Positions 5,879-55,290 of a DNA stretch of 55,412 nt are shown here, one piece after another. The stretch's first letter is position 1, and the number at the start of each line of letters is the position of its first letter. The translations under genes and the position numbers were made by a program. The DNA comes from a virus (Duplodnaviria; Caudoviricetes): the IMG/VR virus record IMGVR_UViG_3300025000_000128, positions 1 to 55,412 of that record. One strand, written 5' to 3'. The notes under the pieces were generated by a model. The model was not told where the DNA came from. It ran no database searches and saw only the letters and a program-made list of their open reading frames with translations.

Positions 5879-5926
5879 TTATATTTTTCTCCTTTTCAAA
5901 TAAAACTCACCTTCTATTGTAATTGT

Positions 5927-6130
5927 TTATGTAATTTCCCTACACTCCACAACATCAATTCCATGATAATCCTTACAATCCAAACAATAAATTAAATCAT
6001 CATCTTTTCCAATAAATATATCTTCAACTCTAATTAATTCTTCACCACAAATTCCACAATTCTCAGAAATATAATCTAAATCATTATTATTATCTACCTC
6101 CTTATGAGACAATACTTTTTGTGTCTTCAT
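5927..6130 (-). CDS. small Zn-finger protein
   Basis: CGICG..CLDC; GGAGG RBS. Confidence 0.7.
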   Translation of the reverse strand: MKTQKVLSHKEVDNNNDLDYISENCGICGEELIRVEDIFIGKDDDLIYCLDCKDYHGIDVVECREIT

Positions 6131-6530
6131 GTTTTGTCATTTCCTCCGTTGTATCTAAAAACTCTCCAATAGAATCTGTTAAATCAATCAACGTCAGTTC
6201 AACATTAGTATCTAACAACTCAAATAATGTTTTTTCTAATGAAAAATTTCCAACAAAATAAGATTCGACTTTTGTATTATAGTTCTCTCTACCAATAATT
6301 AATTTTCCAAAACCTTTATGCTCTTTGCCTGTAATGTATTCTACTAATTTTACTTCAATTAATTTATCAATCGTATTTTTAGAAGAAAAAATTGTGTCTA
6401 GAATTTTAGTTACTGATTTGGTTGAGTTGTCGATTAGTGATGTTATTATGTAGTTTGGTTTATTTGGTTTGTTGGAGATGAAGGGGATTTCTAATAAGGA
6501 TATTGTGCCATTGAGTATTAATTTTTGCAT
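6102..6530 (-). CDS. hypothetical protein
   Basis: 142 aa, AGAGG RBS. Confidence 0.7.
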   Translation of the reverse strand: MQKLILNGTISLLEIPFISNKPNKPNYIITSLIDNSTKSVTKILDTIFSSKNTIDKLIEVKLVEYITGKEHKGFGKLIIGRENYNTKVESYFVGNFSLEKTLFELLDTNVELTLIDLTDSIGEFLDTTEEMTKHEDTKSIVS

Positions 6531-6841
6531 TTGTAAAACCTCTTTCTATAATTTTATTTTTGCATTTTATATTATTTTGTAAATGTATGATTTTCATAAT
6601 TTACCTACCATCAAGGCAAGGTAAATTAGTGTATTTTTATGATTTTGTCCAAAAGTACCTCAAACCCTACTGTCATAAGGGATACAGAGATTATCTTACC
6701 TTAATTATGTGCCTTAATATCGACTCTATTTGCCTCGCTAATTACTCATAGGTAAGATTGTGTCAAATAGATTCTTTAGACGCTTAGAAGGGTCGTTTTA
6801 TGATTTTAGTATTATAAATATATTGTAAAATTATTTTATTT

Positions 6842-7237
6842 CTAGTTTTCAATAGATTCTTCTTTTAACTTTTGTTTCTCTTTTTCTTTCTTCTGTCGAA
6901 GTTTCAATTCTTTGAGTTGTTCATTTTTTCCTTTAATCTGAAAACGAAGGATTTTATGTACTTTATGTATATCACTTTCATTGAACCTTATAACTGCCTC
7001 AGTGCAAGTGTCATTACTAATATATTCCCATACTTTAATATTTTCTTCTTCACACTTTGACATAAAAGATTTGGAACTTGATCCAGTTGGAAAATATATT
7101 GAGAGAGTGGATGAATCGTGGCGATAAATTTCTGTGTTGTAGTGGCCTTTTAGGTAATTATCATCTTTGTTTTTTGATTTTGTATTGTCTGTGTTTAATG
7201 TATGATAGACGAAATATGTACCAATGTATTTAAGTAT
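6842..7237 (-). CDS. hypothetical protein, probably 131 aa from an ATA start
   Basis: ORF 6842..7063 stays open 58 codons upstream to ATA at 7237, just after AAGGAGGTG. Confidence 0.6.
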   Translation of the reverse strand: MLKYIGTYFVYHTLNTDNTKSKNKDDNYLKGHYNTEIYRHDSSTLSIYFPTGSSSKSFMSKCEEENIKVWEYISNDTCTEAVIRFNESDIHKVHKILRFQIKGKNEQLKELKLRQKKEKEKQKLKEESIEN

Positions 7238-7356
7238 TTCTTCTCACCTCCTTTATATTAATATATTTTACTTATTGGATTTTTAGGCAAGGGGTAGGTT
7301 TGTGATTATTGTGATGATGAATGTGTAAAATGTACCCGCCCCTTGCCTATGTGATA

Positions 7357-7385
7357 ATTATAGCATTTTGATGATTAGATGTCAA
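7357..7385 (-). promoter_or_regulatory. sigmaA promoter
   Basis: TTGACA-17-TATAAT with extended TG; leader hairpin AGGCAAGGGG..CCCCTTGCCT at ~7286-7348. Confidence 0.8.
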
Positions 7386-7415
7386 GTAATAATATTATTT
7401 TTATGTTTAGTAAAT

Positions 7416-10244
7416 TTAATTATGTAATTCGTGTCCAATATCCTTGTATCTCATTAATAAATATCTTTTAATACTATCTGACAGTTCGATCATTCCAGAG
7501 CACCTAGAAATTGCCACGTAACAACAAAAAACTTCTTCTGATATATCTTTAACTAACTTCTTTTTGTCTCCATAATCCTCATCTTTTTTAAGATACTTAT
7601 TCTTATAAGTAACCTCTAAATCTAAATGATCATTACTAATATAAACAGGCATACTCAGTGTTAATCCCTTGCTTTTATGAATTGTAGAAAATATAATATC
7701 TGCTTTATCCTTATCTGTAACAGTATTATTTTTAATTCCATCTACAATATCAATAATACGTGAACCATATTTATCTACCATTCTGATTAAAGAAAGTATT
7801 TCGATATCATTTGTGTCCTCTGCATATGTTTTCATTTTATAGTAGTCTTCAAACTTAGCAAATAGTTTATTCTTTGTAGGATGTCCTTGACTGTAAAAAA
7901 GACACTCCTTAAGTGATTGAAATGAGTAAGAAGAATATCCTCCAACAAAGAAAAGCTTTTTATTCTTATCTTCACTTAATGCTTCAGCAATTTCAGCAAA
8001 TATGTAAGCATTTGTTCTACATAAACAAGCGTATGGTTTAGATTTATCTATTTTATCAACTATAGTTTGTTTGGAGTTAAATCCTTTCATTTTAATATTA
8101 TCACCAATGAAGTCAGAGATAATTAGGTTTTCTATATGAGCAATGTTATTAGATACTCTAAATGATGTTGTGAGTTTATATTCTTTTGCATCAAATAATG
8201 GCATGATATTTACAGCCTTTCTCCATGAGTACAATTGCTGATAGCAGTCACCCACAATTATTAGTTTTGGTACATTTGAATTTTTAAGTATATCAAACAT
8301 CATCATTGAAGAATCTTGACAATTATGTACTACTACTCCAGAAGCATTCTTATTAGATGTTTTCTGAGTGATAAAATTATGATTATCTGCTACTTCAATA
8401 TCATATACATTATCATTAGATACTTTATGTATTGACTTGATATAATTTCCACCATGATTTAAATATATGTTATTATACTCACAAACATTATTAGTAATAT
8501 TTATATTTGTCTTATATTGCATTGTTGGATGCATATATGGAGAAATTAATTTTAAAAATCTATTTGCCGATTCTTTATTTAATCTAAGATAATAATATTT
8601 ACCTTTTGTTTTTGATATTAGAAATTCTATATCATATTTATTAAGAATAATATCTCTTAAATATGTTGTTTGTTCTAATGTTAATTGATTTGAATTTATA
8701 GAAATACCACCACTAGTATGATAAGTACCATCATCTTGATACCATATTGCTAATCCTAATGGTTCAATATCATTTAGTAATACCATAGGATCATTCTCAA
8801 GTAAAAATACCTTCGTAGAATTAGATTGATAGACAGATAATTTTTTAGTATATCCACTCTCTATCATTTTGTATGATAAATCAAATGCTTTAATTTTAGA
8901 TTTAAAATATTCAAATTGCTTTTCTCCTTGTGTAAAACTTAATCTATAAGTGTTAAATTTACTTTGTTTAGCCAAACTTCCATCACCAAGAAATGAACCC
9001 ATTATAATTTGTATTTGATCATCATTTGGTTTGTATTTAGTTTTCTGATTAAATGTATTATCTAGAATCATAGAATCTTTTCCAACAATTAAATCCTCTG
9101 CTTTAGTCCATCCTCTTTGCGTCAATATTTTATGATTAGGAGTGCAATGTAGTTTATTTAATCCTTCTGTATGTATCTCTAATAACTCTCTATTTTCACT
9201 CTTTATTGCTGATACAATAGGTTTATATTCAAATAAATCTTTATCAATATTATAACTTAAAGCATTTGGAAGTTTTTCGCCAGATTTATACAATTCATAA
9301 AGTTTCTTAATAGATTTATTACCTTGATCTGTCTTTACATATTGAGATGCTGGCAAACATTCATCTAACATAATAATATCATATTTATTTGATAAATCTG
9401 TCTTAGATAAATGGAACATCTTCAAATAATCATCGTGACTTATTTTCACAGAATTTTTATATTTCTTTTTAAGTTCCCATAATTTTTCACTTAATGCCAG
9501 TATTTTTCCTCTCATATCATCTTCTTTAAATATTTCTAAATCACTAAAAGTTTCTGCTGACGAAAGTGAATACTGTTTCATCATCTCGTTTATTTTTACT
9601 GCAAGTTCCATATCCTTATCCCAGTTAAGATTTAAGTCTTTAATAATATCTACTACACCATAATTAAATGTTAATTTGTCTCTATAGAATTTTCCGACTG
9701 TCTCATATCCGATGGAGTGTAAAGTTCGAATATTTACGTGCTTTTGTGATTGGAAGAGATTTTGGCTCTCTAATTGCATTGATTTGTTGTAAACTACGTA
9801 GAGAATTTTGCTAAAAGGATGTTCTTTTGCAAAATAATATAGAGTGCTTGATTTCGCAGATCCTGTTAAAGCTGATACCTTAACCCTATCCTCTGTACTA
9901 AAAATAATATCCTTCTGTTCTTGAGTTAACCAATACCCTTCTTCTGACATATAATCAGACATTTTTACTTCAACATTATCAAATTGTTTATTATAAAATT
10001 CTGTAGATAAAATATCTGTATCAGATTGTTGGAATATAGATTTATCTTCTTTTATTATAAGTTTCATTTTTGCTTCGCATTGTGATACATTAGGTTCAGT
10101 ATCTTTAGCATGTGAGTAAAATTGCTTGACCGCACCAAAGTTCCTAGTTAATACTTCATGGCAAACAGGACAGGTGTAAATATTATTAGATGTTGACTCT
10201 ATGATATCTACAAGTTTGTTATTTTGGTCATACGCTTTTTTCAT
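7416..10244 (-). CDS. UvrD-like SF1 helicase with N-terminal Zn ribbon, interrupted by an intein
   Basis: ALTGSAKS (motif I variant), YVVYNK, RTLHS, MLDE|CQD, VGDCYQQLYSWR, LTTSFR, STIHKSKGL, YVAISR; N-terminal CPVC. Confidence 0.88.
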   Translation of the reverse strand: MKKAYDQNNKLVDIIESTSNNIYTCPVCHEVLTRNFGAVKQFYSHAKDTEPNVSQCEAKMKLIIKEDKSIFQQSDTDILSTEFYNKQFDNVEVKMSDYMSEEGYWLTQEQKDIIFSTEDRVKVSALTGSAKSSTLYYFAKEHPFSKILYVVYNKSMQLESQNLFQSQKHVNIRTLHSIGYETVGKFYRDKLTFNYGVVDIIKDLNLNWDKDMELAVKINEMMKQYSLSSAETFSDLEIFKEDDMRGKILALSEKLWELKKKYKNSVKISHDDYLKMFHLSKTDLSNKYDIIMLDECLPASQYVKTDQGNKSIKKLYELYKSGEKLPNALSYNIDKDLFEYKPIVSAIKSENRELLEIHTEGLNKLHCTPNHKILTQRGWTKAEDLIVGKDSMILDNTFNQKTKYKPNDDQIQIIMGSFLGDGSLAKQSKFNTYRLSFTQGEKQFEYFKSKIKAFDLSYKMIESGYTKKLSVYQSNSTKVFLLENDPMVLLNDIEPLGLAIWYQDDGTYHTSGGISINSNQLTLEQTTYLRDIILNKYDIEFLISKTKGKYYYLRLNKESANRFLKLISPYMHPTMQYKTNINITNNVCEYNNIYLNHGGNYIKSIHKVSNDNVYDIEVADNHNFITQKTSNKNASGVVVHNCQDSSMMMFDILKNSNVPKLIIVGDCYQQLYSWRKAVNIMPLFDAKEYKLTTSFRVSNNIAHIENLIISDFIGDNIKMKGFNSKQTIVDKIDKSKPYACLCRTNAYIFAEIAEALSEDKNKKLFFVGGYSSYSFQSLKECLFYSQGHPTKNKLFAKFEDYYKMKTYAEDTNDIEILSLIRMVDKYGSRIIDIVDGIKNNTVTDKDKADIIFSTIHKSKGLTLSMPVYISNDHLDLEVTYKNKYLKKDEDYGDKKKLVKDISEEVFCCYVAISRCSGMIELSDSIKRYLLMRYKDIGHELHN
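8322..9359 (-). mobile_element. intein (346 aa) with LAGLIDADG homing endonuclease
   Basis: starts CLPASQYV, block B CTPNHKIL, GSFLGDGS and IWYQDDG motifs, VYDIEVADNHNF, ends VVVHN followed by Cys+1. Confidence 0.92.
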
Positions 10245-11633: not shown

Positions 11634-11669
11634 TTCAAAATCAACCACCTTTTCATAGTGCTATGTAAT

Positions 11670-11965
11670 GTGTATACAATTTTGCGTTCAAATTTTAGAA
11701 TGTACCCCCTATTTTGAGTACAAATTCTAAAGTTATGCTCACACACATTTGCGTTCAAATTCATAGTATTTTAGAAAGTAAACGCTTTTCTGTGTGAGCA
11801 CTCTCTGCGTTTGTACGCAAAACTGTGTGAGCACATTTAGAAAGTAAACGCATTTTAGTAGCCACATCACACAGTATAAAGAGTTATATAAGTATAAAGA
11901 GTAAAAGAAGAATATAGAGTAAAAGATTATAAAGAGTTCTATAGATTTGCTAACGCAAAATCAAA
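11670..11965. repeat. iteron-like repeat cluster (candidate origin)
   Basis: TGCGTTCAAATT x2 (11683,11750), TTAGAAAGTAAACGC x2 (11771,11837), CTGTGTGAGCAC x2 (11790,11823) plus inverted copy at 11736, AGTATAAAGAGT x2 (11873,11891). Confidence 0.7.
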
Positions 11966-11973
11966 TTGTTTCT

Positions 11974-12702
11974 TTAACTTATTTTATTATTTTTTAATTT
12001 TAGTGTATCAATAATTAATTGCCTTCCTTTCTCTGTTATTAAAATCACATAATTTATACTTCCATCTTTATATTTTTTCTTTCTACCATTCTCAAAGTAT
12101 CCTTGATTTATGTATTCATCTTTAACATAATATGCACAATTATTTGATTTTGTAAATATACCTTTTAGAAATAGTTCTTCATATAATTTATCTTGTGGGA
12201 ATTTCATTTTATATCCATCTAGTTTGAGTTTTGAATATGTATCTAAACAGTTTAGTATTCTATTGTTTAATTTTAATCTTAACTTTTCAGTTTTAGGATT
12301 AGGTGGATTTAAACCATTGTTTTGTACCAATCTCATCAAATATTTTGCATCAGCTATTTTACTTATGATTACTTTTTTACCACTAAGGACTTTATCTACA
12401 GTGTTTTCTATATTGTATCCATTGGTAATAGAATTATATTGATTTATGTATTTTCCTTCTACGTATATCAATTGCATAGTTGTTTTATATGGACTATCTA
12501 AACTTTGTATTTCTTCTAGTATTTCAAATCTAAAATTATCTTTTCCGTATGTATTCCATGCAGTTTGTAATTTATAGTTGCAATGAGAATTTTTGTTTAG
12601 TTCATCTATATGTTCATCCCAACGTCTTTCTATGTTATTACTTTCACCAATATAAGGTAGATTGTTTATTTTGTTTATAATTCCATATATTCCTTTTGTC
12701 AT
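11974..12702 (-). CDS. GIY-YIG endonuclease with C-terminal antirepressor (KilAC/ANT)-like domain
   Basis: GIYGIINKINNLPYIGES..RRWDEH..LQTAWNTYG..FEILE..GYN; C-terminal EYINQGYFE..ITEKGRQLI. Confidence 0.8.
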   Translation of the reverse strand: MTKGIYGIINKINNLPYIGESNNIERRWDEHIDELNKNSHCNYKLQTAWNTYGKDNFRFEILEEIQSLDSPYKTTMQLIYVEGKYINQYNSITNGYNIENTVDKVLSGKKVIISKIADAKYLMRLVQNNGLNPPNPKTEKLRLKLNNRILNCLDTYSKLKLDGYKMKFPQDKLYEELFLKGIFTKSNNCAYYVKDEYINQGYFENGRKKKYKDGSINYVILITEKGRQLIIDTLKLKNNKIS

Positions 12703-12756
12703 TTTAATCTTCTCTCCTCTATCAATCATTATTTTATTTTTATATTGTTAGTAATA

Positions 12757-13358: not shown

Positions 13359-14135
13359 TTAATCAGTAATTTCCACTTCATATCTACACATAGCATCATA
13401 TAATGTCTGAGGAATATTATTTTTATATTCATATGCTACCTGTTTTATGTATTTTTCTTTATATTCTTTATATGCATTAAAGGCTTCTTCGGGTGTATTA
13501 AAACTTCCTAAATATATACTTGAATCATTGTCGCGACAAACTGCATTATATTTTCTATGATGTGCGGATACACCTACTAGTATATTGTTATGTCTGTGTG
13601 TTTTTAACAAAGAATTAATTCTAACAGGGACGAATACACATGTCTCTGGAGAATAAATTTTATTACCTTTAATTAATATATCTTTGTCTAAATGCATTTC
13701 TTCTCCATCTATTTCATAATAGTTTTCATCATACCATTGACCAAAGTTTTGAAAGTTTAACCACTCATTACAGACAGTGCAACCTATGTATGTAGGACGT
13801 TTTTTATGTAATTTTTCATCATAGCATCTATGCAACATATTCGTCCAACAACGATATTGACTAGTTGTTTTAGAATTTCTACCACTTTTATATTTTCCTA
13901 CTCCCAAATAACCAACTCCACAAACTGTTTTATCATATAACGAATTTGCCATTCCTTTCATAAAATCTTTATATTCACGATTGTAAACTGTATAATTTGT
14001 ATCAGGAAAATATATGTCAATATCTTTTGTATTATTATATTTTATTATCATCATTTTGCTACCAAAATTATTTACTCCAATTTGTCCTACTCTATCAGCA
14101 ACTTTTACAGATTCATTTATTTTTGCATATGCCAA
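13359..14135 (-). CDS. HNH-type homing endonuclease with AP2-like C-terminus
   Basis: WTNMLHRCY..VCNEWLNFQNF..LDKDILIKGNKIYSPETCVFVP..YLGSFNTPEEAFNAY. Confidence 0.8.
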   Translation of the reverse strand: MAYAKINESVKVADRVGQIGVNNFGSKMMIIKYNNTKDIDIYFPDTNYTVYNREYKDFMKGMANSLYDKTVCGVGYLGVGKYKSGRNSKTTSQYRCWTNMLHRCYDEKLHKKRPTYIGCTVCNEWLNFQNFGQWYDENYYEIDGEEMHLDKDILIKGNKIYSPETCVFVPVRINSLLKTHRHNNILVGVSAHHRKYNAVCRDNDSSIYLGSFNTPEEAFNAYKEYKEKYIKQVAYEYKNNIPQTLYDAMCRYEVEITD

Positions 14136-16250: not shown

Positions 16251-16480
16251 CCCTTACAATCTATCCATACCCTTCCTAAACCTCTCCATAACCCTATTCT
16301 ATCATCTTACACAGCATCTTATCTCCTTAATTCCCTACACAATTTTAACCCTATATAATAGAAAGCAATAAATCTCTACAAATTCATAACTATAAAAATA
16401 AATTTTATATGAAACGACTATTCCTTTCAATTTTATGATATACTATAGGAAATTAGTTAATCATCAAAGGAGTGTTAGCA

Positions 16481-18394
16481 ATGCTAAAAATTAATGATTT
16501 CGTAAAGGTCACTGGTTTTTATGTCAAGAATGACAACGACATCTTCATTGTAGATAATCAATATTCCAATGGAGAATACTGCTTAAAGAAAGTCACCTTA
16601 TCCGGTACTCAGTCCAAAACAAAATATTCTATTCTCTTTTTAAAAGCTAAACATTTTGCAGATCCCACGTTAACAATTGAAGTCATTCCAAATGTTGCAG
16701 GATTAAAACAAGCTAAGAAAGAAGTAAATGATTTCCTAAAAGGTATCACAGCAGAAGAAAAGGTTTTCTCCTTTGTTGATGCAATCGGTACTGATGTAGA
16801 AAAAGGAACTTTCCTTAAAGTCATTAAATCATTTGGTATTACTTCTAGCATGTACAGTGTTCCAAAGGGTACAATTTACGAAATAACCTCTACATACAAT
16901 GGTAACTACAATCTTAACATGGTAGGTAAAAGAGGAGAGAAATTAAGCACGACAGGAGCAAATGGCTGTAATAAAGTTATTCTAACATTCTCTGCTAAAA
17001 GTATTGCAGGATTATTCTCTGATGGCGATATAGTCAAGGTTGAACGGATCGAAAGCACAAAAGGAGAAATTGCTAATACTGAAACCACTGAAACTATAGA
17101 AAATGTAGAAGTCATTATACCTGCTAAAGTTATAACAGCTTCAGAAATTGAAGAAGAAATTGCACCTTATGACGAATACCGTGAACAACTTGTAAATAAA
17201 ATCATGGTCAATCTAGATCATGTTGCTATCAATGGAGATATTGAAGAATTAACCACACCAGAACTAGAAGCAATCATTACTAGAATTAATTCTGCAATTG
17301 CCAATCAAATAATATCTATAACAATTGATACTGAAAACTATGCAATCATAACAACCGGAAATGGCTCTTATAAATGCAATTATGCAAAAGACGAATACTT
17401 CAGCAATGAGTATTACATTGAAGAAATAAAAATTGATCATAGGGTTTATGGGTTAAATAGTTTTGTACCTTACATAGAAGAAGCGAAACAACCTATAACA
17501 GAAACCTCTATAACAGCAGTCGAACTAGTTGCACCAATTATCCCTGTACAAAACATTAATCTTATCAATCCTATCAATGAAGCACTAGCACAACGATCAA
17601 AAGAAAACATGAGTTTTTCAAGTTACACTCCAAATTCCGCAACAATGGAATACAATCAAGAAATAACAGAAGTTTCCAAAGCAATCAATTCTGCTAAATC
17701 TAAAGTATCACCTGAAGCGCAAATCAAACTTGATAACCTTCTCTTGTCCTATTCTTCAAATTATGCAAATTGGATTAATAAACGCAATGCAAATGGTGCA
17801 AGTCATGTTAGTTCATTCATTTCTGGCCCATCTAACTATAACATGAGCAAACATAACAAATACTTAAATCGTGAAGGAAAACTATGGGAAGAATATGAGC
17901 AGTTTAAAAATATTCAAAGTCGTATCAATGCAATTGTTGCCGGAGATAAAATCATAAAATCCAATGATGTAAATGCTATTGATAAGTTAAAAGAAAAACT
18001 TGAAAAAGCTTTAGAGGAACATGCAGGATATAAAGTATATAATTCCAACGCTAAAAAGGAAGGAAAACCGTCTCTTCCTGCTTATGTTCTACAAAATAGC
18101 AATGGTAGGATAAAAGGCATTAAAGACAGAATTGCACACCTTGAACGGCTATTACAGCAGGAGTCAAAAGAAATTATAATCGAGTCAGAATCAACTCTAT
18201 CTAATGGAATTAAAATAGTTGATAATGTAGAAGCACATAGACTACAAATATTCTTTAATGGGAAACCATCAGCAGAAATTAGAACACAACTTAAAAAGAA
18301 TGGATTTAGATGGACACCAACAATTGAAGCATGGCAGTCTTACAGGAGCGACAAAGCAAGTAAAAAAGCTTTAGAAATTGTTTCTAAAATTTGA
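16481..18394 (+). CDS. polyvalent-type protein; C-terminal half resembles DUF3560/large-polyvalent-protein-associated regions
   Basis: IKSNDVNAIDKLKEKL, LQNSNGRIKGIKDRI, RLQIFFNGKPSAEIRTQLKKNGFRWTPTIEAWQ. Confidence 0.65.
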   Translation: MLKINDFVKVTGFYVKNDNDIFIVDNQYSNGEYCLKKVTLSGTQSKTKYSILFLKAKHFADPTLTIEVIPNVAGLKQAKKEVNDFLKGITAEEKVFSFVDAIGTDVEKGTFLKVIKSFGITSSMYSVPKGTIYEITSTYNGNYNLNMVGKRGEKLSTTGANGCNKVILTFSAKSIAGLFSDGDIVKVERIESTKGEIANTETTETIENVEVIIPAKVITASEIEEEIAPYDEYREQLVNKIMVNLDHVAINGDIEELTTPELEAIITRINSAIANQIISITIDTENYAIITTGNGSYKCNYAKDEYFSNEYYIEEIKIDHRVYGLNSFVPYIEEAKQPITETSITAVELVAPIIPVQNINLINPINEALAQRSKENMSFSSYTPNSATMEYNQEITEVSKAINSAKSKVSPEAQIKLDNLLLSYSSNYANWINKRNANGASHVSSFISGPSNYNMSKHNKYLNREGKLWEEYEQFKNIQSRINAIVAGDKIIKSNDVNAIDKLKEKLEKALEEHAGYKVYNSNAKKEGKPSLPAYVLQNSNGRIKGIKDRIAHLERLLQQESKEIIIESESTLSNGIKIVDNVEAHRLQIFFNGKPSAEIRTQLKKNGFRWTPTIEAWQSYRSDKASKKALEIVSKI

Positions 18395-19638: not shown

Positions 19639-21378
19639 ATGAATAATAGTATATTTCCTAAATTAGAAGAATTATTCAACGTGTTTATGTGTGAAGCAGC
19701 AATAGGAAAAACTCACACAATTATTGAAACACTAAAGGAACTATCAGCCACCACGAAAGCATTAAATAATAAACCAATCAAAACTTTAATTGTAACAAAA
19801 TTTATAGATGAAGGAAAACTAATTGCAAGTGAATTAAATAAATTTAAACCTAATATGGCTAAAGATGAGAATTCTGAAAATAAGGAAAGATATGAAAAGG
19901 ATCTTAAAAAGTATGAAGTATTAATTATTACTCATGCAATGTATAAAAAACTCTGCAAAGATCCTTATCACAAGCGCAAATATTACATAGCAGAAAGAAC
20001 AAATCTAATAATTGATGAAGAACTTAATATGGTAGAAATGGACTCACTGGGAGATACAGACATAGACATTATTAGGCGAACCCTAAGAGGTTTAAAATAT
20101 ATTGATGCTGAAGAAAATATGTATATCGATTTAGAAGTAGCATTCAATAGAATCATATCTGAATTAGTTGAAAAGAAGGATCAATGTCACGACAAAACAT
20201 TAAGATATTTTGAATTTACTAGCACAAAGATAGAAAAAGCAATTGATATGTTAAAATTAATGGTCAATGAGACTCCTTTTACAAATAATTATGAATTCCA
20301 TTTAGGATATAGCCAGAATATTTTTACAAATAAACTTAAGTTATTAGATAAATTAGAAATATTAAAGAAATATTTTAATAATCCTAAAGTATTAGTTAGT
20401 AATAAAACACTTTATACTTTTGATGATGATTTAAAATACTTCTTTCTAGACAATAATATATTATTAGATGCTTCAGCCAAATTTCATGAACTATATAAAT
20501 TAGGTTCACAATTCAAATTGACTGAAGCAGAGCGCATATTTCCGCATAATAACTGGACTATCCATATGTCTAATACTAATTCAACCAAAACAGCAAAACA
20601 TAACGATGATAATTTCTATAAGGATGTTGTGGCCCTAATTATCAAAGAATGCGCTGAAAAGGATAATATTTTAGTGTTAGGACTGGAGGAGGATATCGCA
20701 CATATAAATAATAATTACAGTGATAAATTAATACATTTGGAAAACATTAAATATAGTAATTTTCAGAATATGCGTGGAAAGAATGATTGGAAAGATTTTA
20801 ATAAATGCTTTATAATTCATACTCCGGTAATGCCAGCACCTTACTATATATTTATGTATATGCTTTATACAGGAGAGGTTCCAACTGAGGAGGAATTTAA
20901 ATTCCAGAAAATAAATAAAAACATGGGGTTTAAATATAATGAAACATTGGAGAGTTTAAGAAAAACTGATATTATATCTAGTATATATCAAGGCATTAAA
21001 AGAATTAATAGGGGAACAGGGCATATAGAAGATAAAGCAGACGTTTATTTGATTAATGGAGATTTAGAGATTGTAAATGTCATTATTCAACAATTAAAAA
21101 ATATTAATGTAGTTAATTTTAAACTGCATGAAGAGAAAGTTAAGAAATATGATAGTAAGGAGAGAAAAGAAAATAGTTATTGCAATAAATTTATTGAATT
21201 ACTTAAATTATTAGATGTTAACAAGCAATATCCAGTTAATGATTTATTAGAACAAATAGAATATAAACCAACTAATTTTAGTAGACTATGGAAAGATGAT
21301 ATTGTCCAAAAGATAGTTAATGAATTAAATATAGAATTAATAAAGATTAATCGTATTAACCATATAATTAAGAAATAA
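19639..21378 (+). CDS. SF2 helicase-like protein, possibly origin-binding/replication
   Basis: CEAAIGKT, LIIDEE, LLDASA, RGKNDW, YQGIKRI; ATG at 19639 has AAGGAG RBS. Confidence 0.65.
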   Translation: MNNSIFPKLEELFNVFMCEAAIGKTHTIIETLKELSATTKALNNKPIKTLIVTKFIDEGKLIASELNKFKPNMAKDENSENKERYEKDLKKYEVLIITHAMYKKLCKDPYHKRKYYIAERTNLIIDEELNMVEMDSLGDTDIDIIRRTLRGLKYIDAEENMYIDLEVAFNRIISELVEKKDQCHDKTLRYFEFTSTKIEKAIDMLKLMVNETPFTNNYEFHLGYSQNIFTNKLKLLDKLEILKKYFNNPKVLVSNKTLYTFDDDLKYFFLDNNILLDASAKFHELYKLGSQFKLTEAERIFPHNNWTIHMSNTNSTKTAKHNDDNFYKDVVALIIKECAEKDNILVLGLEEDIAHINNNYSDKLIHLENIKYSNFQNMRGKNDWKDFNKCFIIHTPVMPAPYYIFMYMLYTGEVPTEEEFKFQKINKNMGFKYNETLESLRKTDIISSIYQGIKRINRGTGHIEDKADVYLINGDLEIVNVIIQQLKNINVVNFKLHEEKVKKYDSKERKENSYCNKFIELLKLLDVNKQYPVNDLLEQIEYKPTNFSRLWKDDIVQKIVNELNIELIKINRINHIIKK

Positions 21379-26941: not shown

Positions 26942-27090
26942 GAGCTAACAAATAGCTCTTTTTCTTTTCCCTCATACCCATTAAAAATCCATTTTTATAG
27001 GTTAAAATAGTAAAATAATATATTGACATATTAAAAAATAAGCGTATAATTATAGATAGTTACACAACTTAATAAAGGAGTTGACCGCAA

Positions 27091-29459: not shown

Positions 29460-29604
29460 CCCAATCAAAAAGACATTTTATCGTATTTTAAGACTGTATA
29501 AACATTTGATTATGCAGTCTTTCAGACTTCGAAGTTTTACTAAACTATGTACTAAATCAAAAATAATTAGTATATAGTTTAGTAAAATAAAAGGAGTGGT
29601 TATT

Positions 29605-38155: not shown

Positions 38156-38264
38156 TCCATTAAAACTATTATTTTATGCCATATTATGGATTTCAAAACC
38201 CTTATAACAGTAGGGTTTCAGAGGTTGACTGTTTAAAATTATTTGAAGAAAGAAGGAAATTAAA

Positions 38265-39143: not shown

Positions 39144-39216
39144 ATTGGTCTGAGCCAGTATAAAACACCTTAAGCTCAGAGCGTTAGTAGGGTTTATAAC
39201 AATCCTGCTAGGTGGT
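39144..39216 (+). ncRNA. pistol ribozyme
   Basis: P1 AUUGG/CCAGU with loop UCUGAG pairing CUCAGA, AUAAAA linker, ACC-UUAAG, GCGU, P3 UAGUAGGG/UCCUGCUA, GGU-GGU; predicted cut G39212/U39213. Confidence 0.9.
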
Positions 39217-39243
39217 ATAACAATAACAGGGAGGATGATTTTA

Positions 39244-40263: not shown

Positions 40264-40386
40264 TTTGTAATATTTCAAAAATTACAAAACCCCCGAAACC
40301 CTTACTACACTAGGTTTTTATAATTCAATATTTGGCATGAAATGTTATTTTTATTTGGCAGGATAGAAAGGAAAATGAGAATAAAA

Positions 40387-41341: not shown

Positions 41342-41397
41342 ATTAAAATATAACTTTTCTGGGAGTTTAAAATAAAAATAAAGAGGAGTGTGTACAT

Positions 41398-41919: not shown

Positions 41920-41981
41920 TAGATGATCCATTAAAAACAGTCTTTGGTTTGGTTATAATTTAAGAAAGAAGGTAATTTTAA

Positions 41982-42629: not shown

Positions 42630-43619
42630 ATGTCTATCAATTTCAAAAGTCTATTCGCTGAGGCAACAATACATAATTCTGAATATGTAACAAACAAACA
42701 CATCTTAATCAAAAAATCTATCCTAAAGAAATCTCAACTTGCATTCATAAACCAATTCCCTCTCGACACTAAGTTAATCCAATCTCTATCCAAAACAATT
42801 GAAAATGAATCTAGAAAGCCAATTATCACTGAATTTATTCCTCAATCAATTCTAGAAGATAATCTCTACAACATCATCGTAACTGAACTAGACGGGGGTT
42901 ATAAAGGAGATAATGAATCAATATTTAAAGTATATCCTGCAATCCAAGAAGAGTATTATAACTTCATTCTATCTCTAAGATGCAAAATATTCATTGTTAA
43001 TAATGATCAAGTAAACCCACTAGTAATCTATAACAACGACAATGAATTTGTTGGGATAGTGTTACCTGTAAAAGTAAAATATTGTGATATTCCAAATGCT
43101 AAGAATTACATTGACTATCTTGCAGAACTAAAATTAGAACAAGATGCAAAAGAATTAGTTAAACAAAATTCTAAGAAATGCTTGTATATCAAAGATAATA
43201 AGGCAATAGTCAGAAATAAGGAATTAATCTGTGTGTCAGATTCAGTAAACGACAATACTTATGATAATCTCTATATTGAAAGATATATCAATGATAGTCC
43301 AGATGCTAACGTGTATATTGATTTAGGAATTGTTTGTGTATATATCCGAACTATAAGGAAAGACATGTTAGTTGAAGATATTAAATATTATCTAAGCAAT
43401 TTATCCAATTACACATTAGAAATGGCTCTAGCAAACATTTATAACCGCAAGAACAATAATCAATTTATCAATGTTGCAGACATTAAACTCATTGAACTAT
43501 CTGGAGCCAGCGAGCAAGAAGTTCAAGAACTAATTGATTATCGCCAAGAATGGTATGACAGAAAAGCTAAAGAGGATCAATTAAAGAAATCTAAACAAGA
43601 CCAAAAGGAGCATAAATAA
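42630..43619 (+). CDS. hypothetical protein
   Basis: 329 aa, AAGGAG RBS. Confidence 0.8.
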   Translation: MSINFKSLFAEATIHNSEYVTNKHILIKKSILKKSQLAFINQFPLDTKLIQSLSKTIENESRKPIITEFIPQSILEDNLYNIIVTELDGGYKGDNESIFKVYPAIQEEYYNFILSLRCKIFIVNNDQVNPLVIYNNDNEFVGIVLPVKVKYCDIPNAKNYIDYLAELKLEQDAKELVKQNSKKCLYIKDNKAIVRNKELICVSDSVNDNTYDNLYIERYINDSPDANVYIDLGIVCVYIRTIRKDMLVEDIKYYLSNLSNYTLEMALANIYNRKNNNQFINVADIKLIELSGASEQEVQELIDYRQEWYDRKAKEDQLKKSKQDQKEHK

Positions 43620-44493
43620 TGGATAATAAAATTTATAATACTGGCGATATAGAAAGAGACATTTTTCGTATGGCGGGGAGATTAGCAGGGTCACTATATA
43701 GTGTAGGATTAAAAGATGAAGCAATGGAGTTTACAAACAAAGTAATAGAACATCAAGACGATTGTAAAATGATACTTAAATTATGTATTGAATATACTAA
43801 ATTAATAGAAGAAACGAAAGGAAGATAAAACATGAAATTAAATTTAACAATCGTAGGAAAATCAATACAAGATATTAGAAATGCTATGGAGGCATTTATG
43901 GAAGATTTTAAAGACAATAGATTAGATAGCAATTGCAATTGGCCTCTTAATGATGGAAATGAAACTAAAATTGATTATGATTTTACAGACGGAAATGATG
44001 TCTTCAATAAAGGTATGGAAGGTGAACAATGGGGGGAAGAATTAAGAAAAGAAGTTAGGAAGGGAAGAAAGGATTGATTAATTATGCGTGAAGTAAACGA
44101 ACTTATCAACTTAATAACTGAAATAAGTAATGACCCATATTTAACTTATCAAGAAAGAAAAGATAAATTAAAAGAACTCAAATTAACTTATGAAGAAATG
44201 GAATCAATTTTTATGTCAATGTGTGGAATATGGACTAGTTTAAAGGAGTTGGAAATTGAATGTTAAGTGCTAAATTTGAATTTGATTTCTCTGATGATAA
44301 ACTTATCTCAAGATTGATTGAAGAATATAATGAATGCGAAAGCAAAGATTCAGATATTGTTTTAAATCTAAAAGGTCATGAGTTGCAAGCACTTTTGATT
44401 AATTTAATTATTGGTCGAATTCCATATCAAGTATGTACAAAATATGTTTTACCTGAATTGGCAAATAAGCAATTGAAAAATCAAAGCATTTGA
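43619..44493 (+). CDS. four small hypothetical genes (43619-43828, 43832-44077, 44084-44266, 44260-44493)
   Basis: tightly coupled ORFs, each with an RBS. Confidence 0.7.
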
Positions 44494-44540
44494 AAACTGC
44501 GATTTTAAGTGATAATAATTTTAAAAAAGGAGAATGAGAG

Positions 44541-46346: not shown

Positions 46347-47707
46347 GTGATTAAGATAGAATTCAAATCAAAAGTAAATTGCATTTTTTATAGACGTAAA
46401 ATATGTATGCTTCATTATCCAAAAAATAAATGTGAAGGATTATGTAATAAATATAAAGAAACAAATTATGGTGAAACTAAATTAATACTATTTATAATGT
46501 TGCTTGTTTTGATCTTTATGATTTATTGTTTATTAAATAGTTACGATGAATTTAGTTTTTGAAAGGAGAATTAAATAATGCAAAGAAACTTAACCTTAGA
46601 AGAAGTAATACTACTCAATAAATCTAAAGTAGAAATGCTTAAAAACAAATATAATATTCAAATTAATGTTCAAACACATAGTATTGGTATGGGAGATAAG
46701 GGATATGATTATTGTATTTACAATCCTAAGAATGGGAAATCGTGGTCTAGTGATATAGATGGAGAGCGTTTGGAAACAGATGTGTTATGGGTAGTTTATT
46801 AAAACCAAGTAATTAAAATTCGACTTTTATTGGATAAGAAGAAAGGAGAAAAAATAATGATATACTTAATGGGAAAAGAATTAAATCTAAAAGTATCTAT
46901 GGATATTATGGATCAATTAGATGAAGAATTATGTAAATCTTGCTCAATGATTAGTAACAATTGTAAAAATGAATACTGTGAAAGATATGAGACAGAATTT
47001 GATATTAGAAAGGAATTCATAAACAATGAAGCCAAATAAAACAATCATAGAAATGGATTCTTCTAAATTACTCAAAGCATTTGAAAGTGAAGTAAATGAA
47101 TATGGCGGTAAGAGGTATGATTTTTTAGGGAATATTATGCCAAGGTATAATCAGAATAGAATTAAAATGTTGAGAACTGAATTGTTTAGGAGATTAGGAT
47201 TAGTTAATGAAGAAAGTGATATTCCTACATTAAATGATGAATTTTTTGCGAGTGTTGATAAAAGTATTAAAGACAAATTAACAATGAAATATGGAGAAAT
47301 TATTGAACCACCTTCAAATGATAGCTATATTAAACTGGCTGAAGAAAGTAATATTAAGATAAGAAATAGTTTTAAAGTTCCAAGTCACTTATTATAAAAT
47401 GTGAAGAAAGTATAAGGAGGAATAATTAATGAGAGAAGGACAAAGAGGTAAGTTCATAGGTAACGAAAATTATGATGGTGATCTAATGGGAGGAGAATTA
47501 TTTACAATTACAGAGTTAATTGAATATTTTCCTGAAGAAAAGAGTTGGGTATTTAAAATGGAACTAGATACTGGAGGTGGAGAATGTTTATTAAGTGATA
47601 TGGTTGAAATGTTTACCGAAGCAGATGATTTAATGACGTTGAAAAATTTGATTAATAAGTATCCAGAGCAAGCAAATCAATATTTAGGAATAAGGAGGAA
47701 TAAGTAA
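46347..47707 (+). CDS. five small hypothetical genes (46347-46562 with C-terminal TM, 46578-46802, 46857-47039, 47026-47397, 47429-47707)
   Basis: consecutive ORFs with RBSs. Confidence 0.7.
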
Positions 47708-50728: not shown

Positions 50729-50804
50729 TATGAATTTGTCAATTTAAAGAGTATTTAAAATTTACATTATATGGTATATTGAATAGTAAAGCGTAAAATA
50801 ATAT

Positions 50805-52529: not shown

Positions 52530-52700
52530 CTATTTCGCGTTTAGCGAATAGGAGGATATTATGCTCTCTTATTAAGAATTAGTCTCTCTTATTACACCTT
52601 ATTTTACCCCCTGTTTTTTAGGGGTGTAACCAAAGCATTACCTTATTATCGTACCCCCTAAAATTAGTGGGTATAAACTTTTACCTTATATTAACCATAT
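52530..52700. repeat. short-repeat cluster (candidate origin/operator)
   Basis: TTCGC-GTTTA-GCGAA hairpin, CTCTCTTATTA x2 (52564,52584), ACCCCCT x2, TTACCTTAT x2, TACACC/GGTGTA. Confidence 0.55.
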
Positions 52701-52742
52701 ATTTACAAATAAATTATAGAAAGTAGAGAACAAACAAACAAA

Positions 52743-54125
52743 ATGACAACAAACAAAGAAAATTTATGGTCTAAGATTCCAAATAGATTTTTCTATTCTA
52801 TTGAGGAAGGAACGGATAGTATCTTAAAACAAACAAAATTCAAAGATAAAACATTGCTGATATTAGATTACTTGTATATGCAAATGAATAGAAGAAAGAT
52901 AATAAAATTTACTTTAGAGAATATGATTATTGAGTGTGGATTTATTTGTAGCACAAAGAAAGGTGAAACAAATTTTCAATTCAAAGAAATATTATCAATA
53001 TTACATAAGATAAAAGTTATTGAATATGAAGGAGATTTTGAGAAAGTTTCTCCTAAAGAGTTAATAGTTTGTTCATTGACTCTTGATTTATCTAATAAGT
53101 ATACAGAATTGTATGATGCCGAAAAAGAAAAGATACATAATCAAGAAATAGAAAAAGTTGATAATTTAAAACTGCTTATGTATTACTGTTACTTGAAATG
53201 TAGAATGTATAAGCGTCCAAAAGGAGATGAATTAGTTAAATCAGGTGGAAGGTCGGAGGTTGCATATCCACCATTTAAGAAGATTACTGAGGATTTGGGT
53301 CTTACAGATGATACAATTGATAAATATAATAAAATTTTGGTTGCTTTAGACATGATTAGATATAAGTCAGCAGGGACTTGGTATTATAAAAGTGATCCTA
53401 ATAAGATAGTAAGAGAAAGTGTTAATTTTTATACTCTGTTTACAGACGAAGAAACCGCACAACATAATCTTAAAGAGGGAATTAAATTCTATAAAAAAAT
53501 GGATAGAAATTCTAATAAAGTTTTTACTGGAAGCAAAAATTATAAAAATAATAATAAAATATTAAATGGTGAATTGGGTTCCATAATTAAGAAAGAGAAA
53601 AGGGGCACTGCTACAGCAGAGGATATTATTAGAAAGAATCAGATTATATTTTCTATTACTGCAAATGAAGAACAACATGGTATTCAAGCTTTATTAGATT
53701 CTAATCCAAATACATTACTTTCTGATATTTATAGTGGTTTTAATAGTGAAAAGAAAGCAGATAAGTATTATGATTTGGAAGAGTCATTAGGACTTCTTGA
53801 TACTGGTAAGGAATTTGGAGTTGATTTTAAGTATTATAAATGGATAATGATGAACTATGATAAAGAAGAGCATGATAAATTTATGCATTGTGTTAATAAT
53901 AAAAAGAAAGCTGGATTAAAGACTGAGGATATAATATATTTTGCGGATAAAACGTCAAAACATAAAGGATTTGGGTTACAGAATGATAAAAAGGTAATAA
54001 AGGAAGATATAATTGTAGAAGAAACTTATGTGTCAGAAAAAGATGATAGTGCTTTTATAGAAGAAATGGGATGGGAACCTGAAGCAGATTATATGGACTG
54101 GACAGATGATGACGAAGATTGTTAA
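52743..54125 (+). CDS. putative winged-HTH replication-initiator-like protein; paralog of 10301..11422
   Basis: VAYPPFKKITEDLGLTDDTIDKYNKILVALDMI HTH-like segment; acidic tail; hairpin 54142-54167 follows. Confidence 0.55.
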   Translation: MTTNKENLWSKIPNRFFYSIEEGTDSILKQTKFKDKTLLILDYLYMQMNRRKIIKFTLENMIIECGFICSTKKGETNFQFKEILSILHKIKVIEYEGDFEKVSPKELIVCSLTLDLSNKYTELYDAEKEKIHNQEIEKVDNLKLLMYYCYLKCRMYKRPKGDELVKSGGRSEVAYPPFKKITEDLGLTDDTIDKYNKILVALDMIRYKSAGTWYYKSDPNKIVRESVNFYTLFTDEETAQHNLKEGIKFYKKMDRNSNKVFTGSKNYKNNNKILNGELGSIIKKEKRGTATAEDIIRKNQIIFSITANEEQHGIQALLDSNPNTLLSDIYSGFNSEKKADKYYDLEESLGLLDTGKEFGVDFKYYKWIMMNYDKEEHDKFMHCVNNKKKAGLKTEDIIYFADKTSKHKGFGLQNDKKVIKEDIIVEETYVSEKDDSAFIEEMGWEPEADYMDWTDDDEDC

Positions 54126-54201
54126 TTAGAGATTAATGAGTATTGGGACGGTTAATTCCGTCCCAATAATTTAAGGAGGAATCAATATAAAAAGATTAAG
54201 T

Positions 54202-54369
54202 ATGACAATTGATGTTCATTTTGAAGAAAGTGATAAATATAATTTTTCTGAGGAAGAAAGAGATACTGCTATTAAAGATTTGCAAGATAGTATTAAAGCA
54301 GAATGTATTATGAATAATATCAAAGAAGTATATAGTTGGAAATTGGCTAGTGAATTTATATGTAGATAA
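54202..54369 (+). CDS. hypothetical protein (55 aa)
   Basis: MTIDVHFEESDKY..; RBS distant. Confidence 0.45.
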   Translation: MTIDVHFEESDKYNFSEEERDTAIKDLQDSIKAECIMNNIKEVYSWKLASEFICR

Positions 54370-54520
54370 AATAAATAAAATGTATGATTTATTTGGTTTA
54401 TAGTTTTGAAAAATGGAGTAAAATGAAGCATGAGTGAGCATAAAGGATGTGGGTTTTAATGTAAAATTAAAATTAGATAATATTAAGATAATAAATAAAT
54501 TATAGAAAGAGGAAAACATA

Positions 54521-55246
54521 TTGAAATACATGGGTAGTAAACAAAGATTATCGAAGGATATTTCTCCAATTATTAATAATTTTATCAATAAATACAACAT
54601 AGAAACATACATAGAACCTTTTGTTGGTGGAGCAAATATGATTGAACATATTAAATGCAAAAATAAAATTGGTTCAGATAATAATGAATATCTAATTGAT
54701 ATGTGGAATGTGTTGCAAGATGGATGGAGACCACCTGAGACCATGACAAAAGAAATGTATGACGATATTAAGAATAATAAAGATGAGTATGGTAAATCAT
54801 TGGTTGCTATTGCAGGATTTTGTGCCACTTATAATGCAAAATGGTTTGGTGGATATGCCGGAATAGTAAAAACTAAAATAGGTACATTAAGAAATTATTA
54901 TGATGAGGCTGTGCGGAATATTATTAGGCAAACATTAAATATAATGGATGTTGAGTTTATCAATGAGGATTATACATATTTTACAGATTATAAAAATTGT
55001 CTAATATACTGTGATCCACCATATCAAGGGACTACTAAATATGGATCAAGTAAAGATTTTGATTATGAAAAGTTTTGGAACTGGATTAGAGGAATGTCTA
55101 AAAATAATATCGTGTTAGTTAGCGAATATAATGCTCCAGATGATTTTATTAATGTTTATGAGAAAAAGGTAACAACCACATTAGATAAAAATAGCAGAAA
55201 AGAGGATATAGAAAAACTATTTATGATACATAGGGATTCCAAATAA
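54521..55246 (+). CDS. DNA adenine methyltransferase (Dam/D12-like), orphan
   Basis: MKYMGSK, YIEPFVGG, IYCDPPY, LVSEY. Confidence 0.9.
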   Translation: MKYMGSKQRLSKDISPIINNFINKYNIETYIEPFVGGANMIEHIKCKNKIGSDNNEYLIDMWNVLQDGWRPPETMTKEMYDDIKNNKDEYGKSLVAIAGFCATYNAKWFGGYAGIVKTKIGTLRNYYDEAVRNIIRQTLNIMDVEFINEDYTYFTDYKNCLIYCDPPYQGTTKYGSSKDFDYEKFWNWIRGMSKNNIVLVSEYNAPDDFINVYEKKVTTTLDKNSRKEDIEKLFMIHRDSK

Positions 55247-55290
55247 AAGTTCTGTTTGATTTGATATAAAAATAAAAGAAAGGTAATAAT

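Follow-up and report, generated by a model that had tools for sequence, protein, structure and literature searches.

The palindrome WTAAAA-N6-TTTTAW, which recurs at gene boundaries in the viral DNA of IMG/VR record IMGVR_UViG_3300025000_000128, can be approached through the repeated elements that it most resembles. The attC sites of integrons are 57–141 bp long, conserve structure over sequence, carry paired R and L boxes with a GTTRRRY core and lie beside an intI/attI platform. Sites of the dif type are built from two 11-bp arms, of which the XerD arm is well conserved, and the stoperators of mycobacteriophages are oriented with transcription and vary by immunity group. Published work on stoperators places these elements in many copies in short intergenic regions of the early and late operons of temperate phages (PMC9283540, PMC6550527). 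In T4-type phages, promoter early stem-loop (PeSL) elements are described as short intergenic motifs repeated among small variable genes, with the breakpoints of insertions, deletions and replacements at the motif, and are thought to mediate modular shuffling by recombination (PMC2839356, PMC4122927). Among repressor sites, a preprint describes SroF as a monomer on a non-palindromic box of 24–26 bp, of which it reads 24 of 26 bp (bioRxiv 10.1101/2025.11.27.690993), and a chromatin affinity purification (ChAP-seq) study of MrpR reports peaks at about ten promoter regions with the 15-bp SPBRE element (PMC10516654).

Here we examine the palindrome in the whole stretch of 55,412 nucleotides, hereafter the window, and in related phages. 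The window (55.4 kb) is the entire contig, an estimated 37% of a complete genome with a G+C content of 25–34%, and it is a fragment of an SPbeta-like phage that encodes a YonO-type RNA polymerase. The sequencing runs in which it is listed are four DNA runs from a single study, with no RNA run among them. An original prediction had read about 20 palindromes in it as a possible integron- or dif-like cassette array, through which a tyrosine recombinase would shuffle small accessory genes, with operators for a YopR/MrpR repressor as the alternative. Gene swapping between related phages at the palindromes is supported by the sequence comparisons described below. As to what the element is, we tentatively read it, with a little less than half of our belief, as a dyad-symmetric DNA site for a putative phage protein, inside whose core recombination would preferentially resolve, swapping the neighbor on one side.

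A palindrome with a fixed six-base spacing

At each of the 21 coordinates given in the original prediction the quoted sequence is present, and by the gene map made here all 21 sites are intergenic. Scored against the form used there (WTAAAA-N6-TTTTAT), the 21 sites show 0, 1, 2, 3, 4 and 5 mismatches in 3, 6, 7, 2, 2 and 1 cases, and in 3, 7, 7, 2, 1 and 1 cases once W is allowed at the last base. The ten with at most one mismatch (starting at 5900, 26981, 29464, 38160, 40337, 41343, 44491, 46813, 54375 and 55243) we regard as credible, and 41931, with two mismatches, is counted with them because its block is conserved in relatives; by the pattern, the other ten look like AT-rich background. 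Three intergenic sites with at most one mismatch (4906, 6784 and 50755) were absent from that list, which gives about 13 credible intergenic sites in the window, plus 41931, in place of the 20 or so first proposed.

Enrichment of the palindrome is limited to tight matches (at most one mismatch) and to the 6-bp spacing. The exact pattern occurs five times on the two strands of the window, where 0.92 is expected and five is reached in 1 of 100 shuffles; with at most one mismatch there are 11 intergenic sites against 2.8 ± 1.8 expected, the largest of 100 first-order Markov simulations giving 9. Against the same Markov background the intergenic counts are 28 (25.3 expected) at two mismatches or fewer and 129 (140 expected) at three or fewer, and loose matches are abundant, with 85 on the plus strand of the window at up to two mismatches and 2152 at up to four. 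Matches are not equally common inside open reading frames (ORFs): coding DNA holds one at up to one mismatch, where 6.5 are expected. When the spacer is varied from 0 to 15 nt, the intergenic counts at up to one mismatch run 2, 1, 1, 3, 5, 4, 12, 5, 1, 1, 1, 2, 3, 4, 3 and 4, with the peak at six; the same scan of the window gives no such peak at up to two mismatches and none in coding DNA. An expectation-maximization motif finder converged on compositional signals.

The six-base peak is repeated in other phages. Across 26 related sources (48 kb of intergenic DNA) the count at N6 is 55, against 1–28 at other spacers, and the coding DNA of the same sources (134 kb) has a flat profile with no N6 peak; the 44-kb yonO region of Bacillus phage Goe11 gives 10 at N6 against 0–3 elsewhere, with eight perfect sites. 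With the same pattern reversed as the control for copy counts, exact and control copies number 34 and 1 in Goe11, 33 and 2 in SPBc2, 30 and 1 in phi3T and 36 and 0 in BUCT082, and the unrelated 165-kb phage FADO has 33 exact palindromes against 1. For the window's own relatives the counts are 9 and 0 in G001, 4 and 2 in G002, and 9 and 5 in the D-1873 contig. No exact palindrome occurs in SPO1, SPP1, phi105, 049ML001 or SPG24 (413 kb in total), and because of these zero counts we conclude that the palindrome is specific to certain phage groups and is no generic signal for the host's ribosomes, RNases or polymerase. Our searches of open-access text, which did not take in the 1999 SPbeta genome paper itself, gave no description of it in SPbeta-like phages, and the stem-loops and palindromes annotated in the 23-kb stretch of the SPBc2 record that we examined are other sequences. 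Could the palindrome have no function at all, as a by-product of AT-rich intergenic composition in which TAA and A runs meet T-rich leaders? Matches with two or more mismatches do sit at the background level, and TAA on both strands of the motif makes its adjacency to ORF ends partly automatic. Such an origin is hardly credible, however, in the face of a sharp peak at N6 only in three independent data sets, a 30-fold excess over a reversed control of equal composition, and zero copies in other B. subtilis phages.

Within the palindrome the spacers are free: the 34 exact Goe11 sites have 34 different ones, and 132 sites from the window and its relatives reduce to 100 independent clusters in which spacers seldom recur. 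An alignment of 64 oriented sites from the window and relatives carries less than 0.3 bit per flank position outside the 6-bp arms. The last spacer base is A in 64% of these sites, a T at −4 probably reflects stop codons, and C reaches at most 0.20 at −4 to −1, so the CC..GG flanks of the original prediction are not general.

Relative to genes, a typical module runs in the order stop codon, WTAAAA, six free bases, TTTTAW, 3–8 nt, Shine-Dalgarno sequence, start codon. The offset from stop to core is −4 to +10 for most credible window sites, and six listed sites indeed hold a stop codon within the left arm, as proposed (ORF ends 35385, 38849, 39513, 44493, 45429 and 55246; offsets −3 or −4). Also upheld is the bracketing of a methylase gene, which at 54521–55246 lies between two palindromes of at most one mismatch (54375 and 55243). 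The annotation tables of Goe11 place about 29 of its 34 exact sites between genes, two of them in convergent and one in a divergent intergenic region; about 17 of the 34 have the next start codon 17–36 nt downstream, and for many the stop of the preceding gene is adjacent or overlapping. Among the called genes of Goe11, 29 of 122 on the plus strand and 6 of 52 on the minus strand have a site with up to two mismatches in the 70 nt upstream. In 37–47% of cases a palindrome is next to the end of an open frame of 40 codons or more, against 10–12% of random positions, a difference that is partly built in because the palindrome contains TAA. In the Bacillus phages, counted by eye, the sense strand favors ATAAAA..TTTTAA over its mirror (13:3 in SPBc2, and a mirror 14:3 in BUCT082), a bias that may reflect merely A-rich sense strands.

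Mosaic joints at the palindromes

Comparison with related phages places exchanges of neighboring genes at these sites. The close relative L002 has a protein match in the window for just 7 of its 46 called genes, and several of its intergenic regions are 84–88% identical to the window at the DNA level, conserved from near the upstream stop to the downstream ATG. Over 54 orthologous palindrome pairs from different contigs, both flanks are kept in 26, only the left in 17, only the right in 7 and neither in 4; 20 distinct pairs are one-sided, and in these the shared sequence stops at the outer edge of the 18-bp core in 12 of 14 cases on the right side and 3 of 6 on the left. A core with the spacer gtataa follows the same gene end in three contigs and then leads into three unrelated ribosome-binding sites and genes, and the core with caatta appears in at least five combinations of upstream and downstream neighbors. 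Site 38160 (TTAAAA-ctatta-TTTTAT, 38160..38177; exact, with a stop codon 4 nt before) is a three-way mosaic junction: in L003 the upstream gene and the core match and the sequences part within the right arm, and in L002 the upstream gene is unrelated, yet the sequence from the core through to the ATG is shared. At 41343 (TTAAAA-tataac-TTTTCT, 41343..41360; one mismatch, stop 1 nt before) homology with relatives starts at the left edge, with alignment ends at 41342 and 41346. The degenerate 41931 (TTAAAA-acagtc-TTTGGT, 41931..41948; two mismatches) has alignment ends at 41926, 41929 and 41932 and belongs to a block conserved in L002, L004, L008 and L009, together with the downstream Shine-Dalgarno region, though the flanking DNA in these relatives is unrelated. 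The Bacillus phages repeat the pattern: homology of Goe14 and SPR to Goe11 starts at a palindrome's left edge, and a segment shared by Goe11 and FADO has a palindrome at each of its ends.

Counting all joints gives these cases their proportion. Of 63 interior alignment ends among the Bacillus phages, 14 fall within a palindrome ± 4 nt, 10 of them no more than 1 nt from its outer edge. Taking 78 distinct alignment ends from six Bacillus loci, palindromes ± 4 nt hold 12 (9.7 times their share of positions), other intergenic DNA and gene edges 47 (2.2 times) and gene interiors 19 (0.3 times). When the window is compared with seven close relatives, 3 of 52 ends lie at palindromes (6.8 times their share), 29 in other intergenic DNA and gene edges and 20 in gene interiors, with three further ends at the degenerate site 41931. 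Per nucleotide, palindromes are the hottest class of joint, and they account for a minority of joints. The breakpoint check that the original prediction called for is therefore answered in two halves, with enrichment in the window and in Bacillus but only 3 of 52 and 12 of 78 ends at palindromes; likewise, its idea that genes are shuffled holds for exchange at the sites, which the joints at core edges and the junction at 38160 support, but most joints are elsewhere.

The same short core stands at many gene boundaries of SPbeta-type phages, among them the window, its metagenomic relatives, the Bacillus Spbetaviruses and FADO, and on the reading that we favor, recombination between two phages that share little else at a locus would resolve inside it. 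The crossover, of a short-homology or protein-assisted type unlike the machine of an integron, would replace the gene on one side and leave the reading frames and the downstream ribosome-binding site intact, and the primary job of the bound protein might be either to organize transcription or to promote recombination. Several points weigh against this picture. An identity of 18 bp is short for ordinary homologous recombination, and the protein that would bind the palindrome is putative only. Palindromes carry only 6–15% of alignment ends; the majority of joints being at other gene edges, part of the pattern is explained by selection that favors joints between genes, and intergenic regions that bear a ribozyme and no palindrome are also joints, conserved between unrelated genes. 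The 14 Bacillus ends amount to 9 distinct breakpoints and are not phylogenetically independent, gene calls in the metagenomic loci are crude, and enrichment is weak in D-1873 (9 vs 5) and G002 (4 vs 2). Finally, a slot just upstream of the Shine-Dalgarno sequence, shared with ribozymes, would also suit a role at the level of RNA.

Such a role is worth spelling out. Nearly all sites lie in transcription units, past a stop codon and a few nt ahead of a Shine-Dalgarno sequence, and twister and pistol ribozymes fill the same slot in the window, starting at or near the stop codon. Such self-cleaving ribozymes have been proposed to process polycistronic transcripts (PMC6765202), and the palindrome might be a comparable mRNA element, either an intercistronic cleavage or stability site for a protein RNase or a translation insulator. 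The arms of the Goe11 sites do pair with a mean probability of 0.52 in a 48-nt RNA context. In the window this value is 0.13, however, and the energy of the hairpin, with six pairs and a six-base loop, averages +0.5 kcal/mol over the 34 perfect Goe11 sites and +0.85 kcal/mol over 18 window sites. Among 102 sites with a single mismatch there is no compensation and no preference for G·U (9 keep a G·U pair, 93 lose the pair), and the commonest arm variants, TTTGAT and TTTCAT, disrupt an internal pair. Structure alone needs no invariant arm sequence across distant phages, three Goe11 sites lie in convergent or divergent intergenic regions, and other B. subtilis phages, which depend on the same ribosomes and RNases, lack the motif. 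We consider an mRNA element unlikely. Because the arms are invariant across distant phages, the spacer is free, the spacing is fixed and the symmetry comes without a stable fold, we infer that a putative phage protein of two-fold symmetry recognizes the sequence of the arms in double-stranded DNA; inverted symmetry lacking a stable hairpin would be the signature of a dimer on duplex DNA.

Which protein or signal might this be? An HU-like protein is present in the motif-bearing Goe11, BUCT082, FADO and G002, and by annotation in D-1873, and we do not single it out as the binder, since it is also present in the motif-less SPO1 and SPG24. A YonO promoter was rejected: the palindrome is missing from the gap that precedes the Goe11 late operon, and FADO, which carries the motif, has no YonO. 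As a sigma-A promoter the palindrome has, by inspection, an unsuitable hexamer spacing. As an intrinsic terminator its hairpin is unstable, and the three terminator-like sites between 34 and 54 kb are all on the minus strand, none of them at a palindrome. The ComK box is AAAA-N5-TTTT; no N5 peak exists, the counts at N5 and N6 being 4 and 12 in the window, 13 and 55 in the relatives and 0 and 10 in Goe11. Two further elements of the related phages can be described here. The close relative G001 encodes a 189-aa tyrosine recombinase that consists of the catalytic domain only (20648–21217, which is 2633–3202 of L038; PF00589, 84.7 bits), with XerC-like 4a8e and XerA 5hxy as its best solved relatives; the gene lies about 2.6 kb past the end of L001, the locus that covers the small-gene array of this relative, and a radical-SAM gene follows within about 2 kb downstream. 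Goe11 carries another repeat, TATATACATATTTTTTGTATTT, upstream of aimR (L028 10120–10147) and at 1668, 2889, 8413, 16569 and 18833 (four of these five intergenic), which is probably the published SPBRE.

Tyrosine recombinases provide the mechanism nearest to the original prediction. The palindromes might be core sites cut at the spacer edges by a phage enzyme encoded outside the window or by the host Xer proteins, with gene cassettes exchanged as at attC, dif or pdif sites; differing spacers would bar recombination within a genome and allow same-slot exchange between two phages. The geometry of inverted arms at a fixed 6-bp spacing suits such an enzyme, the joints lie at the core with the spacer preserved, the core is kept beside its upstream gene in 14 pairs and beside its downstream gene in 6, a bias in the direction expected of attC, and all 34 Goe11 spacers differ, as same-slot exchange would have it. 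Every motif-bearing phage type that we examined encodes genes of the tyrosine-recombinase family (two annotated as xerC-like in Spbetaviruses, besides the serine integrase, three with PF00589 matches in FADO, and the Xer-like one of G001), and SPO1 and SPP1 have neither the palindrome nor such a gene. Yet the conserved arms are just 6 bp each, where those of Xer, Cre and Flp are 11–13 bp, and the window, about 37% of the genome, has no PF00589 match at E ≤ 1. For the G001 enzyme, Goe11 gives no match and FADO only a marginal one (E 6.8e-4); the recombinases of motif-bearing phages are not orthologous, which speaks against them as the agent because sites normally co-evolve with their recombinase, and the palindrome is identical. 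The majority of joints are away from palindromes, unique spacers are also expected by chance, and crossovers within an identical core look the same as short-homology recombination. Recombinase core sites thus seem rather unlikely to us, and the small arms, the window's lack of a tyrosine recombinase and the non-orthologous enzymes leave the integron/dif mechanism not borne out. A bolder form would make the unique 6-bp spacers slot addresses of site-specific recombination sites, with an orphan protein of the tyrosine-recombinase family pairing sites of the same spacer; the candidates would be a YopP-like protein in Bacillus and the 189-aa Xer-like protein in the window's relatives. We find this distinctly doubtful. 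If true, relatives that co-infect or are already resident would swap the gene in each slot precisely, with nothing deleted between different slots, and the system would do in nature what recombinase-mediated cassette exchange does with heterospecific sites.

A recombinase fold without recombination leads to another alternative, in which the palindromes would be operators of an immunity repressor, either of the MrpR/SroF integrase-fold type or as stoperator-like roadblocks to elongating RNA polymerase in the prophage. Many copies in short intergenic regions of both early and late operons of temperate phages would fit the distribution of stoperators, and the palindrome is absent from SPO1 and SPP1, which are virulent phages. 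However, the SroF box is non-palindromic and bound by a monomer, the reported MrpR peaks are few (about ten), the repeat that precedes aimR in Goe11 differs in sequence and adjoins a palindrome, and the temperate phage phi105 has zero palindromes. SPbeta and phi3T can be taken as heteroimmune because, according to one report, their double lysogens form (PMC8270828), and the two carry the same arms. Immunity operators are therefore very improbable, and the specific YopR/MrpR version offered in the original prediction does not fit the monomer's box or the aimR repeat.

Sites, ribozymes and genes of the window

Two credible sites toward the left end of the window lie between minus-strand genes: ATAAAA-ttaaat-TTATAT at 4906..4923 (one mismatch and new here; in the sense orientation it is 7 nt past the upstream stop and 21 nt ahead of the next start) and ATAAAA-ctcacc-TTCTAT at 5900..5917 (one mismatch). 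TTAGAA-gggtcg-TTTTAT at 6784..6801, also new, has one mismatch, stands in a convergent intergenic region and is the weakest of the credible set. Besides 38160, two sites are exact: TTAAAA-atccat-TTTTAT at 26981..26998, with a terminator before it and a sigma-A-type promoter downstream, and TTAAAA-ttcgac-TTTTAT at 46813..46830, which is 10 nt past a stop with the next start 26 nt on. The remainder have one mismatch each. ATCAAA-aagaca-TTTTAT (29464..29481) has a stop codon 4 nt before it, ATGAAA-tgttat-TTTTAT (40337..40354) keeps 6/6 arm pairs with the next start codon 20 nt on, and in TGAAAA-ctgcga-TTTTAA (44491..44508; the mismatch is counted on the symmetric pattern) the first three bases are the upstream TGA stop, the ORF ending at 44493. 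The intergenic TTAAAA-tttaca-TTATAT (50755..50772), a third new site, has a sigma-A-type promoter downstream. Of the two sites around the right-hand methyltransferase, ATAAAA-tgtatg-ATTTAT (54375..54392) stands 128 nt upstream of the start of the gene, and ATAAAA-gttctg-TTTGAT (55243..55260) holds its TAA stop in the left arm (ORF end 55246).

Ribozymes occupy the same kind of slot at three plus-strand positions. Twister-P5 ribozymes lie at 31632–31693, starting 21 nt past the upstream stop, and at 35128–35192, starting directly after it (51.7 and 57.7 bits, respectively), and a pistol ribozyme at 39144–39217 (53.8 bits) likewise follows its upstream stop without a gap. In L001/L002 the pistol region has 88% identity (Pistol, 60.1 bits), and the flanking genes there have no protein match in the window. 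Goe11 has no Rfam ribozymes. A separate short motif, YTATAACAR, occurs 19 times in the window against 6.9 expected, a number that 0 of 100 shuffles reach, and 18 of the copies are on the plus strand (for example at 35145, 35832, 37009, 37623, 38202, 39194, 39741 and 39757). As UAUAAC(A) it sits in the variable-hairpin loop of all three ribozymes and in other intergenic hairpins (such as 38196–38218), and it could be a protein-binding loop or part of unrecognized ribozymes. Other RNA elements in the related phages are a DUF3800-VIII match (52.5 bits) at L028 25633–25698, in the Goe11 gap upstream of the late operon, HEARO RNAs in two distant relatives (L010 16249–16458, 158.5 bits; L027 1–212, 147.8 bits), and tRNA genes in L013, L021 and L027.

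The affiliation of the window rests on its 875-aa YonO-type single-chain RNA polymerase (341–2968, minus strand), which matches 39 phage records by tblastn; Clostridium phage D-1873 matches best, with 61% identity, and for the Bacillus SPbeta group the value is about 50%. In the relative G002 the YonO homologue matches in two pieces 1 kb apart inside a single open frame of 1274 aa, which suggests an inserted element. The window's genes lie on the plus strand from 15.8 kb on and, beyond about 34 kb, make up a small-gene array, the counterpart of the block divergent from yonO in SPbeta-like phages. The relatives L001–L027 are 27 loci collected with a 329-aa marker protein encoded in the array (42630–43619); a search of genome contigs with the same protein gave no relative, and 20 kb of the window had no match in the phage collection by megablast. 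Other genes include a helicase with an intein (a LAGLIDADG domain in a UvrD-like helicase; 7416–10244, minus strand), a primase-like protein (16472–18394), a GmrSD-like protein with a GmrSD_N domain (30072–31274, plus strand), downstream of it an 815-aa protein with a methyltransferase domain (31726–34173, plus strand), and the separate DNA methyltransferase (phrog_56) at the right end of the window (54521–55246, plus strand). The GmrSD_N protein and both methyltransferases, within the accessory array, are possible defense or counter-defense genes. Besides the intein, nucleases of homing type are encoded at 2985–3983 (HNH, minus strand), 11974–12729 (GIY-YIG fused to an ANT domain, minus strand), 13359–14135 (a weak AP2-domain match, minus strand) and 23726–24634 (HNH/endonuclease VII-like, plus strand); the last has a 50%-identical homologue elsewhere in L002 (5095–5994), within its small-gene array.

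Two kinds of regulatory or replicative DNA stand apart from the palindromes. Sigma-A-type promoters of the window share an upstream element, AAAATAATTATTGACA, with TATAAT about 17 nt downstream of it. Promoters of this type lie at 22817, 23587, 24795, 26278 and 50795, and also at about 27020 and about 51990; at up to two mismatches the element has 6 matches against 0.97 expected, and from 22.7 to 28 kb almost all genes come with a promoter of this kind of their own and with a terminator. In this phage the part of the SPBRE repressor site may fall to the partly palindromic AATAATTATT. A 340-bp intergenic region at 11634–11973 holds several short direct repeats seen by eye, among them TTTAGAAAGTAAACGC twice, GTGTGAGCAC twice and TATAAAGAGT three times, and is a candidate origin or iteron region.

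Comparison with known systems

SPbeta is a model temperate phage in which several recombinase-like and DNA-binding proteins still await a function, and a perfectly conserved dyad that each genome carries 30–36 times, at gene boundaries and mosaic breakpoints, lends itself to direct tests in laboratory B. subtilis. If the palindrome is a preferred crossover point, it would give a sequence basis for the way in which large phages replace accessory genes, including those for defense and counter-defense, with the neighbors unbroken. It also connects the Bacillus phages to distant uncultured relatives, in which self-cleaving ribozymes are additional occupants of these intergenic slots.

How, then, does the palindrome compare with the systems described at the outset? 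Among repressor sites, it resembles the SPBRE/SroF operator of MrpR and YopR in being a repeated intergenic element of the same phage group, and the SPBRE-binding protein has a tyrosine-recombinase fold; by its description SPBRE is set apart from a 6+6 dyad with a free spacer and 30–36 sites per genome. Like the stoperators of Cluster A mycobacteriophages, it comes in dozens of short intergenic copies spread over the genome of a temperate phage, but stoperators are asymmetric and bound by a monomeric immunity repressor (PMC9283540). The palindrome is symmetric, and its arms are identical in the heteroimmune SPbeta and phi3T, unlike stoperators.

The systems of gene exchange come closer. As with PeSL, breakpoints of gene gain, loss and replacement coincide with the palindrome. 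PeSL, however, combines an early promoter with a terminator stem-loop. The palindrome contains no sigma-70-type promoter and no GC-rich hairpin, is an AT-only dyad of 18 bp around a free spacer, and is found in late operons as well. The likeness to attC lies in an imperfect palindrome at the 3′ end of single, mostly promoterless, co-oriented genes, often holding the stop codon, in genes bracketed by two sites, and in one gene found with different neighbors. Unlike attC, the palindrome is 18 bp long, conserves the sequence of its arms and has no GTTRRRY core, and where an integron needs intI with attI and a promoter beside the array, the window (about 37% of the genome) has no PF00589 match. 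With Xer/dif sites, whose central region spans 6–8 bp, it shares inverted arms around a 6-bp center, six being the only enriched spacing; its sites flank discrete gene modules as do the pdif modules of Acinetobacter plasmids, and the close relative G001 encodes a protein with a Xer-like catalytic domain. Unlike dif, it is conserved over just 6 bp per arm. The palindrome thus lacks some defining features of each of PeSL, attC and dif/pdif, and what it shares with all of them is a gene-boundary repeat that coincides with gene exchange.

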